Positions 35,599 to 37,965 of a DNA stretch of 52,062 bases are shown piece by piece. The notes under the pieces were generated by a model. It was not told where the DNA came from. It saw nothing but the letters and a program-made list of their open reading frames with translations, and made no database searches. This DNA comes from a virus (lineage: Duplodnaviria; Heunggongvirae; Uroviricota; Caudoviricetes). Within the stretch, counting starts at the first letter, position 1. Each line of letters begins with the position of its first letter. The position numbers were made by a program, and so were the translations under genes. The DNA lies in the IMG/VR virus record IMGVR_UViG_2531839330_000009, one strand, 5' to 3'.

Positions 35599-36231
35599 AT
35601 GCATCGTATAGACACGAAAACCGCGCAGAAGGATAAGTTCGGCGCGGGTAAGAACGGTTTTACCCGTGGTAACCCCCAGACCGGCACGCCTGCCACCGAT
35701 CTGGATGATGACTACTTTGACATGTTGCAGGAGGAGCTTTGCAGCGTTGTGGAGGCGTCCGGTGCCAGCCTGGATAAGGGGCGGCACGACCAGCTACTTA
35801 CCGCGCTTCGCGCGCTGCTGTTAAGCCGCAAGAATCCGTTTGGCGATATCAAATCGGATGGCACGGTGAAAACGGCTCTCGAAAACCTTGGTTTGGGAGA
35901 AGCCAGATATGTCATTCAGCGAGGAGCTAATGTCAATGGGGCATGGATACGCTGGTCAGATGGTGCAATAGAAGTATTTGGAACTGGTGGTTCCAATGAT
36001 AATGGGCTGGCTAAAGTCGTTTATCCAATTGCACTACCTAAACTTTCACGTTTTATCAGCATAGCGGAAAGAATAAGAACAGATTACGAAGCCACACCTA
36101 ATAACGTTCACGTTTCAATGATCGTGGATGACCAGGTCAGTAATACAGGTTTTTATGTCCGCTGCCAGATGTACGACGGAAGACCATCAACAAGTGCTTT
36201 TTCCTGGAGAGTTTATTGTGCGCCTGTTTAA
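35599..36231 (+). CDS. tail fibre protein (constant N-terminus fused to current variable C-terminus)
   Basis: 210 aa; reads across the left crossover site at 35883-35908. Confidence 0.8.
35883..35908. repeat. left crossover/inverted repeat of invertible tail-fibre segment
   Basis: AAACCTTGGTTTGGGAGAAGCCAGAT; reverse complement recurs at 37324-37349 (1 mismatch). Confidence 0.7.
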
Positions 36232-36415
36232 TCCTGTTACTTTGACTGAAGTAATCCCCGGTCTTCATGACGTGACCGGGGCTGTGGAATTACCAGAAGA
36301 TAACTGGTTTTTTACTGCATCTGAAATCCCTGAAGGAATGGAAATATCTGTTAACAAGAAGGGCGAACCCATTCTGATTGAGATTAAACCATCTCAGGTG
36401 GAACTGGCCAGATAA
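36218..36415 (+). CDS. tail fibre assembly protein (short form)
   Basis: GTG start with GGAGA RBS 7 nt upstream; 65 aa. Confidence 0.45.
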
Positions 36416-36650
36416 CCCCCGGCGCGGTGCTGGTATCTGCTTCCATCACCGCGTCGATATTACCAACATCATATTCAGTCATTTCCGGTTCCGGTGGTGC
36501 TATAAACTCTCCGTCAGAATAGAACCAACCGACGCCTGCATCTATATGATCAATATTTATAATTTCGCAATTAGAGAATAAATCACCCTCTCCATCCCAG
36601 ATAATAATATTTTTCACCACGCCATGTTCAATCAGAGCAAAATTACTCAT
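36384..36650 (-). CDS. alternative tail fibre assembly protein (U'-like)
   Basis: 88-aa ORF convergent with tfa, inside the invertible segment. Confidence 0.4.
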   Translation of the reverse strand: MSNFALIEHGVVKNIIIWDGEGDLFSNCEIINIDHIDAGVGWFYSDGEFIAPPEPEMTEYDVGNIDAVMEADTSTAPGVIWPVPPEMV

Positions 36651-37384
36651 CAGGCATACTCCTCAACAATAACTATTCCCGGGGCACCGTCACCTCCCGA
36701 TTGAGCCTCACTTCCAGCAGGTGCGCAGGCTCCGCCTCCGCCAGCACCAAAGCCCTCAGCTTTACCACCACCACGTCCGCTGAATGATGAAGAACTTGCA
36801 CCACCTATACCGCCTGAACCTAATGGTGTATCCCCCCCGGTACCACCTGCTACAGCTTTAACAGAGATAACCATTGCTCCTGGTGTTTTTGCACTACAGC
36901 GAAATGCTCTTAGTACAGTACCGGACGATGTCGGACTGGCACCCCATGAAATACCCTGAATATATGATGTGTTTGCAGATGCTCCCCCCGCGCCACCGCC
37001 TGTACCACCAGGTGCAGTTATCATGGAACCGAAATAAGTTGTGCCACCTTCACTACCTGAATTTCTTCCGGCTCCCCCACCTTTACCTGCAGCACCGATA
37101 ATAACGTTGACTTCGAAATCATTATCAACCTCGAAAAATGCTTCAATAAATGCGCCGCTCAATCCAGCTCCGGCTGTTGCCTGCTGATTTTCTGTTGTTT
37201 CAGGAACCCCACCGCCGCCGCCACCGCCACCAGAGGCAATGACCCTTATCTTTTTTGTCCCTGGTGTTGGGATATATTTTCCAGAGCTTTTAAAAATATT
37301 CGTGTTTAACAAACGACCAGAGAATCTGGCTTCTCCCAAACCAACGTTTATGAAAATGCAGAAATAACGAGCAAATGGCATCAT
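36650..37384 (-). CDS. alternative tail-fibre C-terminal segment (S'v, promoterless until inversion), Gly-rich
   Basis: Reads through the right repeat in the same codon phase as the + tail fibre; codons upstream of 37349 are artefactual. Confidence 0.55.
   Translation of the reverse strand: MMPFARYFCIFINVGLGEARFSGRLLNTNIFKSSGKYIPTPGTKKIRVIASGGGGGGGGVPETTENQQATAGAGLSGAFIEAFFEVDNDFEVNVIIGAAGKGGGAGRNSGSEGGTTYFGSMITAPGGTGGGAGGASANTSYIQGISWGASPTSSGTVLRAFRCSAKTPGAMVISVKAVAGGTGGDTPLGSGGIGGASSSSFSGRGGGKAEGFGAGGGGACAPAGSEAQSGGDGAPGIVIVEEYA
37324..37349. repeat. right crossover/inverted repeat of invertible segment
   Basis: ATCTGGCTTCTCCCAAACCAACGTTT, inverted partner of 35883-35908. Confidence 0.7.
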
Positions 37385-37410
37385 TCCTGCTTTTGTCAGG
37401 GAGATCTACC

Positions 37411-37965
37411 ATGCTTATTGGCTATGTACGTGTGTCAACAAATGACCAGAACACAGATCTACAACGTAATGCGCTGAACTGTGCAGGATGCGAGCTGATT
37501 TTTGAAGACAAGATAAGCGGTACAAAGTCCGACAGACCAGGACTGAAAAAGCTGCTCAGGACATTATCGGCAGGTGACACGCTGGTGGTCTGGAAACTGG
37601 ACCGACTGGGGCGCAGTATGCGGCATCTTGTCGTGCTGGTGGAGGAGTTGCGCGAACGAGGCATCAACTTTCGTAGTCTGACGGATTCAATTGATACCAG
37701 TACCCCAATGGGGCGCTTTTTCTTTCATGTGATGGGTGCCCTGGCTGAAATGGAGCGTGAACTGATTGTTGAACGAACAAAAGCTGGACTGGAAGCAGCT
37801 CGCGCACAGGGACGAATTGGTGGACGTCGCCCCAAACTTACACCAGAACAATGGGAGCAGGCCGGACGATTAATTGCATCAGGCGTTCCTCGCCAGAAGG
37901 TGGCGATCATCTATGATGTTGGTATATCGACACTGTATAAGAAGTTTCCGGTCGGAGATAAATGA
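37411..37965 (+). CDS. pin: serine DNA invertase (Pin/Gin/Hin family)
   Basis: 184 aa; MLIGYVRVSTNDQ catalytic Ser region, C-terminal HTH; adjacent to invertible segment. Confidence 0.9.
   Translation: MLIGYVRVSTNDQNTDLQRNALNCAGCELIFEDKISGTKSDRPGLKKLLRTLSAGDTLVVWKLDRLGRSMRHLVVLVEELRERGINFRSLTDSIDTSTPMGRFFFHVMGALAEMERELIVERTKAGLEAARAQGRIGGRRPKLTPEQWEQAGRLIASGVPRQKVAIIYDVGISTLYKKFPVGDK

Follow-up and report, generated by a model that had tools for sequence, protein, structure and literature searches.

The IMG/VR virus record IMGVR_UViG_2531839330_000009 (Duplodnaviria; Heunggongvirae; Uroviricota; Caudoviricetes) is a stretch of 52,062 nucleotides, here referred to as the window, and all positions given below are those of the window unless another genome is named. 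It contains a prophage in which the tail-fibre gene is the last gene of the plus-strand late/baseplate operon and is located directly 3' of a YmfQ/Mu gp48-like gene. The first 97 codons of the fibre gene are followed by a 1.45-kb segment with two alternative fibre tips, named tip A and tip B, each accompanied by a small open reading frame (ORF), and just outside this segment lies a gene (pin) for a DNA invertase (Table 1). Here we describe this locus, which an original prediction made from the sequence had taken to be a complete Pin-type invertible tail-fibre switch, and we report how its sites, tips and invertase compare with those of other prophages and phages, including genomes that carry the same segment in the opposite orientation.

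Table 1. Features of the fibre locus and its invertible segment (positions in the window; aa, amino acids)
Feature	Position	Strand	Size	Remarks
Fibre gene, current form	35599-36231	+	210 aa	97 constant residues followed by 113 residues of tip A
Constant N-terminal part	35599-35889	+	97 codons	Outside the invertible segment
Left crossover site	35876-35901		26 bp	CTCTCGAAAACC TT GGTTTGGGAGAA; central dinucleotide 35888-35889; matches the left P-segment site of K-12 e14 at every base
Variable tip A	35890-36231	+	113 aa	Now fused to the constant part
65-aa ORF	36218-36415	+	65 aa	GTG start after GGAG; shares 14 nt with the 3' end of the fibre gene
88-aa ORF	36384-36650	-	88 aa	Short tail-fibre-assembly-like protein; predicted partner of tip B
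Central conserved patch	36406-36458		53 nt	Convergent halves meet here; the minus strand encodes DTSTAPxVIWP
Variable tip B	36650-37342	-	230 aa	Glycine-rich; predicted to be silent at present
Right crossover site	37331-37356		26 bp	TTCTCCCAAACC AA CGTTTATGAAAA; central dinucleotide 37343-37344; matches the right P-segment site of K-12 e14 at every base
Leader of the silent tip	37345-37384	-		Own ATG; 13 full codons outside the segment, MMPFARYFCIFINVGLGE
Pin DNA invertase	37411-37965	+	184 aa	Encoded beyond the segment; GGGAG 7 nt before the ATG

The constant part of the fibre matches the N-terminal tail-fibre families of PHROG at 1e-55. On the tip A side, PHROG 2557 matches residues 40-208 of the fibre (9e-21), and tip B matches the Pfam family Gly_rich_2 (PF21722) at 1e-7 and phrog_6202 (tail fibre C-terminus) at 3.5e-56. 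Since tip A is currently fused to the constant part it is taken as the expressed tip, i.e. the window is predicted to be in a "tip A on" state. The glycine-rich ORF as a whole extends over 36650-37384 on the minus strand and encodes 244 aa, including the stretch INVGLGEARFSG. Its leader, conserved also in K-12 (stfE) and P2-like prophages, provides the silent tip with a complete ORF in either state. The layout of the ORFs agrees with the claim of convergent alternative modules, in that two tip-plus-partner modules face each other, and the 113-aa size of the present tip and the 230-aa size of the glycine-rich alternative were both reproduced. A single-sequence AlphaFold model of the 210-aa fibre had a mean predicted local distance difference test (pLDDT) score of 39, and for this reason no use was made of it.

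The predicted 26-bp inverted repeats with one mismatch were recovered as two arms, 35883-35908 and 37324-37349, which are 1415 nt apart and complementary at 25 of 26 positions (96%). The true 26-bp crossover sites are located approximately 7 bp outward of this repeat. Specifically, the repeat corresponds to the central dinucleotide, the inner half-site, seven inner bases of the segment and five bases of the outer half-site; its single mismatch falls in the outer half-site, and the inner 19 bases are identical. Moreover, the functional unit begins at the start codon of the fibre gene (35599) rather than at 35883. When the window was searched with a 19-nt site pattern, allowing for ≤3 mismatches, two matches were obtained, both of them the repeat sites, compared with 0 expected on the basis of 100 dinucleotide-preserving shuffles, and a looser regular expression for the site again gave two matches only. 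As is typical of systems with this class of invertases, the locus has two inverted 26-bp sites, each an imperfect dyad, with the same AA/TT centre, and both sites fit the Sandmeier consensus (Mu, P1, e14, p15B and S. boydii) in the form quoted in Table 3 of PMC4134206. Inversion in silico at the central dinucleotides generates an uninterrupted fibre of 327 aa, 97 constant and 230 glycine-rich residues, and the open frame confirms the proposal that both fibre frames read through the repeats in the same codon phase.

The invertase has the Pfam domains Resolvase (PF00239, 1.3e-51) and HTH_7 (PF02796, 3.9e-13) and aligns end to end with the Gin structures 3UJ3 and 4M6F (E=1e-95), with approximately 80% of the residues being identical in the printed alignment. 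At the protein level its identity is 100% to PinE of Escherichia coli ECE228, 96% to K-12 PinE and 84% to the P2-like prophage invertases. The active-site residue Ser9 is present, and in the comparison with PinE both Ser9 and all other aligned residues are intact. Enzymes of the Hin/Gin/Cin/Pin subclass are serine recombinases of about 185-195 aa that have the active-site serine in an N-terminal catalytic domain and a helix-turn-helix domain at the C-terminus. The 184-aa enzyme is assigned by its sequence to this subclass and is intact, which upholds the view that a Pin/Gin-family invertase is encoded just outside the segment. Residues Arg153 and Leu154 are also conserved; these are the counterparts of Hin Arg154 and Leu155, which are needed for activation by Fis and the enhancer (PMC3798978).

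Comparison with sequenced genomes provides evidence that both orientations exist. This very sequence is already present in RefSeq genomes and the parental junction was detected in five genomes, while the predicted inverted junction is identical at 400 of 400 positions in the complete genomes of E. coli ECE228 and ECE218 and 96% identical in a third genome. Between the ECE228 prophage and the window, identity amounts to 99.83% over 17652-35908 and 99.79% over 37324-40622, and 35883-37349 aligns in the inverted direction at 99.66% with breakpoints that are exactly the repeats, the left crossover site being the inversion breakpoint relative to ECE228. A fibre gene in which a constant part is fused to tip B was found in ECE228, ECE218 and LR882050, and also in UC4224, in this case in a P2-like prophage. 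The P2-like prophages hold the same cassette in both states, each with a fibre coding sequence (CDS) of 463 or 580 aa annotated as intact, and where tip A is the one fused (loci L003 and L012) it is joined to a constant part of 350 aa. Moreover, in UC4315, which is recorded as a "mutant of UC4224", a 1460-bp segment is inverted between flanks of 6032 and 6480 bp that are 100% identical to UC4224. Among complete E. coli genomes, 17 have one of the invertase-proximal junctions and 70 the other. For K-12 e14 the sites are known to invert in culture, with approximately 30% inverted, and more when PinE or PinQ is overproduced (PMC12529663, PMC4272514). The original prediction was to be abandoned if a single orientation and an inactivated invertase were all that could be found; instead the opposite state is seen in a near-identical prophage and the invertase is intact.

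Taken together, these data make it very probable that the locus represents a canonical two-state switch of the Pin type, in which site-specific inversion swaps the tip of the prophage tail fibre and its partner gene in frame. According to this model the late operon would be read from left to right into the fibre gene, the first 97 codons of which lie outside the 1.45-kb segment. Pin would bind to both inverted 26-bp sites, cut at the central AA/TT dinucleotide and exchange the strands. At either tip the cut, within ...N-L/V-G-L-G-E-A-R..., would meet the same codon phase, and tip and partner gene would therefore be swapped with the frame kept. A population of lysogens would in this way release virions of two receptor specificities, corresponding to host-range bet-hedging.

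Several points weigh against this interpretation. The flipping evidence is comparative, or comes from homologous systems, and not from culture of the source strain, and an effect on host range is suggested by analogy with Mu G and P1 C. The 65-aa and 88-aa ORFs would act as chaperones in this model, and the former is without a recognisable assembly-protein signature. In systems of this class a cis-acting recombinational enhancer made up of two Fis sites is normally located within the 5' part of the gene for the invertase, and the switch described here would depend on Fis and such an enhancer. A Fis-bound enhancer was not demonstrated: degenerate Fis patterns occur at about background density and are uninformative, and conservation at third codon positions, based on six invertase genes, is not raised in the region 37471-37560. 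The conserved Arg153 and Leu154 and the 92.6% DNA identity to K-12 pinE speak for an enhancer only indirectly.

It is conceivable that the locus is a frozen relic which has kept the anatomy of the switch and no longer flips, for example as a result of a lost enhancer, a silent pin or a dead prophage, in which case the differences in orientation would reflect rare old events. That the orientation evidence stems from genomes other than a culture of the source strain, and that the enhancer was not demonstrated, would fit with this. In addition, a scan for promoters and terminators over 35400-38100 gave counts at the level of shuffled sequences, with no sigma-70-like promoter ahead of pin and none that would be usable for its expression. 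However, ECE228 has a Pin that is 100% identical and shows the opposite state in a prophage that has diverged by only about 0.2%, the crossover sites are the same as in K-12, where they actively invert (PMC12529663), and the same cassette is in opposite states in UC4224 and in UC4315, which derives from it. It is also known that invertases from other prophages can act in trans (PMC12529663, PMC4134206), and the prophage looks complete with att sites that match. We therefore find a switch that has ceased to flip unlikely.

Another explanation is that the switch mainly serves the host, such that in each state the silent tip might be made as a free receptor-binding protein that could mask outer-membrane receptors against other phages, as has been reported for StfE2 of K-12 e14. 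The complete 244-aa ORF with its conserved leader could be understood in this way, for an analogous chimeric protein a block of T2 adsorption has been reported (PMC12529663), and the defence gene PD-T4-3 adjoins pin. Yet no leftward promoter-like site entering the segment was detected in the scan referred to above, and the tips are unrelated to the K-12 tips, so the result obtained with K-12 is not transferable. Moreover, the fibre has an obvious role in the virion of a complete prophage, and the leader overlaps the outer half-site and the region upstream of pin, a possible cause of its conservation. A function in host protection is hence considered to be very unlikely. Multi-site, shufflon-like systems with more than two fibre tips, e.g. 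Min of p15B and three-site P2-like variants, are known in E. coli prophages (PMC4272514). Such a system was rejected here, and we give it next to no weight, because the 52-kb window holds no third site match even at 3 mismatches and exactly two tip modules are present in the segment. The two-state inversion switch remains our preferred interpretation.

The prophage is 39.5 kb long and looks complete. Its ends, in the stretches 1369-1445 and 40857-40903, are a perfect direct repeat of 47 bp (1399-1445 and 40857-40903) that overlaps the 3' end of tRNA-Thr(CGT), adjoining proA; the integration site is thrW. The gene set includes an integrase, lysis genes, terminase, portal and capsid genes together with a Mu-like sheath, tube, tape measure and baseplate; the Mu-like tail and baseplate genes in the window comprise gp48, baseplate J, gp46 and the DNA circularisation protein, and all late genes and the fibre gene are on the plus strand. 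The constant part of its fibre is common to K-12 stfP and the Shigella phages, and the element is an SfV/e14-like myovirus prophage carrying an e14-type switch, distinct from e14 itself. The possibility that the window is e14, beginning in icd, was discarded because proA is the first ORF and the 47-bp repeat at the ends of the prophage lies at the tRNA gene and not in icd.

The e14 P segment and PinE were reportedly described by Plasterk and van de Putte in 1985 and by Mehta et al. in 2004. As suggested in the original prediction, we aligned the locus with this segment and found that flanks and sites are homologous and that the content of the segment differs. Both 26-bp sites are identical in the two elements, and so is the upstream order of baseplate J and the YmfQ gene. 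The constant part of stfP is 96.8% identical up to 35902, where the homology stops, and it resumes at 37330 with pin (92.6% identity at the DNA level and 96% at the protein level). Between these positions the interior is unrelated as judged by blastn, except for 53 nt at 36406-36458 (87%), i.e. the central patch. In the K-12 segment, of approximately 1.8 kb, the StfP tip is paired with TfaP and the StfE tip with TfaE, whereas the 1.45-kb segment studied here carries the 113-aa tip with the 65-aa ORF and the glycine-rich tip with the 88-aa ORF. Furthermore, K-12 e14 is a 15-kb remnant in icd, unlike the complete 39.5-kb prophage at thrW. A defence gene follows straight after pin in both elements, mcrA in K-12 and PD-T4-3 in the window.

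Mu G/Gin and P1 C/Cin share the same plan: two convergent modules of tip and assembly gene lie within the segment, and the constant part of the fibre and, close by, the invertase are encoded beyond it. They differ in that their segment is 3 kb, compared with 1.45 kb here, and in that the constant part here is much shorter, 97 codons. Their tips are unrelated to tips A and B, and Mu U and U' are 175 aa, so the partner ORFs in our segment are far shorter. P2-like E. coli prophages (e.g. in UC4224, UC4315 and HZDC01) carry the same cassette at 99.5% identity and in both states, including within one strain lineage; their constant part is P2 H-like, 350 aa and unrelated to ours, identity of the invertase is only 84% for the protein and 82.5% for the DNA, and the outer half-site on the fibre side differs (TCTTCTCGCATACC). 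The prophages Phi1, Phi2 and Phi4 of EC958 are P2-like cases for comparison (PMC4134206). For the Shigella phages SfI, SfII, SfIV and SfV the N-terminus of the fibre is 95.7-97.4% identical and the late genes are of the same type, and these phages presumably integrate at thrW beside proA, as does the prophage in the window. Their deposited genomes match only the first 305 nt of the fibre gene and neither the cassette nor pin, and these phages therefore appear to have a fixed fibre tip. A megablast search of the unit against deposited phage genomes matched the invertase and the constant part and never the cassette.

The two small ORFs of the segment had been referred to as assembly genes in the original prediction, and for the 88-aa ORF this has support from homology, in that it is similar to the Goslar Caudo_TAP protein and to TfaE, while for the 65-aa ORF only its position speaks for it. 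The ATG of the 88-aa ORF overlaps the stop codon of tip B (TGATG). Over its N-terminal 56 aa it shares 53% identity with the N-terminus of the Goslar Caudo_TAP assembly protein (E=6e-20), its C-terminal 22 aa are 73% identical to K-12 TfaE, and it ends in the DTSTAPxVIWP motif that is common to TfaE and TfaP; however, no Pfam or NCBIfam family matched at E<=0.01, and the protein is short, only 88 aa. The fibre that precedes the Caudo_TAP gene in Goslar also ends in a glycine-rich domain, such that the pairing of tip B with a partner like the 88-aa ORF recurs. On this basis, its assignment as a putative tail-fibre assembly protein is reasonably supported.

We identified 134 homologues of the 65-aa ORF, mostly 57-65 aa long, all annotated as "hypothetical" and without Pfam domains. 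They are found in many genera of Enterobacterales, including Escherichia, Enterobacter, Salmonella, Cronobacter, Yersinia, Hafnia, Erwinia, Kosakonia and Citrobacter; the deposited phages with a homologue are limited to the P2-like S164 and Cronobacter phage JK004, the latter a distant case. The best PHROG family for the ORF is phrog_5400, of unknown function (2e-22), and the tail fibre assembly family phrog_188 is matched at 0.0088 only. It gave neither a Pfam or NCBIfam match nor an alignment with TfaP or TfaE, and it is without the DTSxAPxIxWP tail. Because it covers positions 1-66 of the 145 positions of phrog_5400, the ORF was considered as a truncated form of a longer protein. This idea was dropped because nearly all of the 134 homologues are 57-65 aa, or slightly longer as a result of upstream start calls. 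From its position we presume that the 65-aa ORF encodes a partner or chaperone of tip A. In the 53-nt central patch, in which the two convergent small ORFs overlap, the stop codons of the 65-aa ORF and of K-12 tfaP share the same aligned position.

Directly downstream of pin, 38026-38850 on the minus strand encodes a GIY-YIG (LEM-3-like) protein with a match to PD-T4-3 in PADLOC (E=2.7e-140). The gene occupies the position of mcrA in K-12 e14, and since PD-T4-3 stands where K-12 has mcrA the slot after pin looks like a cargo site for defence genes. A regulator of the AraC family (39615-40367) is located between the defence gene and attR. Elsewhere in the prophage, a 5-kb stretch (12675-17652) is without counterpart in the ECE228 prophage, the late region of which is otherwise 99.8% identical. 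It has three minus-strand ORFs (13060-13695, 13688-14116 and 14121-15260), none with a Pfam match and one with a weak PADLOC match to PDC-S54 (1e-5), and may be moron or defence cargo.

Two different prophages of the ECE228 genome (NZ_CP196312.1), located at 2.63 Mb and 3.26 Mb, contain related invertible cassettes. One of them is SfV/e14-like and the other P2-like, and their invertases are approximately 84% identical; cross-action of the invertases and exchange between the two cassettes are possible in this strain. With respect to annotation, in the tip-B-on state the fibre is called a truncated "stfP" pseudogene in RefSeq, and the 230-aa tip is left unannotated, in both ECE228 (locus L005, 5910-6212) and LR882050 (locus L006, 3910-4212), while the same tip B fusion in P2-like prophages has been entered as an intact CDS. 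What is annotated thus varies with the state of the switch.

Switches such as Mu G, P1 C and e14 P have been known since the 1980s, were reviewed by Sandmeier in 1994 and have repeatedly been rediscovered in long-read assemblies. Our data add no new principle to this; what is specific is the cargo, two pairs of tip and partner, and the intact prophage context. An e14-type switch is here documented in an intact prophage and not in the K-12 remnant, it carries a different pair of tips, and the same cassette is present nearly unchanged in P2-like prophages. The two small, conserved and unannotated partner proteins of 65 and 88 aa may represent minimal fibre chaperones, and the pseudogene calls illustrate that automatic annotation breaks in one of the switch states.

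Finally, the boundaries of identity provide some insight into how the segment might have spread. The 99.5% identity to the P2-like cassette spans 35883-37347 and ends within about 5 bp of both cut points; just outside, the identity of pin drops to 82.5% and the constant part shows no similarity. The mirror image of this pattern is seen relative to K-12 e14, where homology in the flanks extends exactly to the sites and what lies between them has been replaced. Moreover, the tip B half of LR882050 keeps 98.4% identity as far as position 36406 precisely, where the central patch starts, and is then joined to a different second half. These boundaries therefore indicate that whole cassettes exchange at the crossover sites and half-cassettes at the central patch, in agreement with the modular evolution of fibres as reviewed by Sandmeier 1994, insofar as that review is cited in PMC4134206. 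We tentatively raise the possibility, which at present we regard as doubtful, that the cassette is a mobile module moving between unrelated prophages through the crossover sites. The sharp boundaries at the sites make it a clean example for the study of how receptor-binding domains are exchanged, and if invertase-mediated exchange and not homologous recombination drives the movement, Pin-type enzymes would, besides switching the fibre tip within a prophage, also spread receptor-binding modules horizontally.

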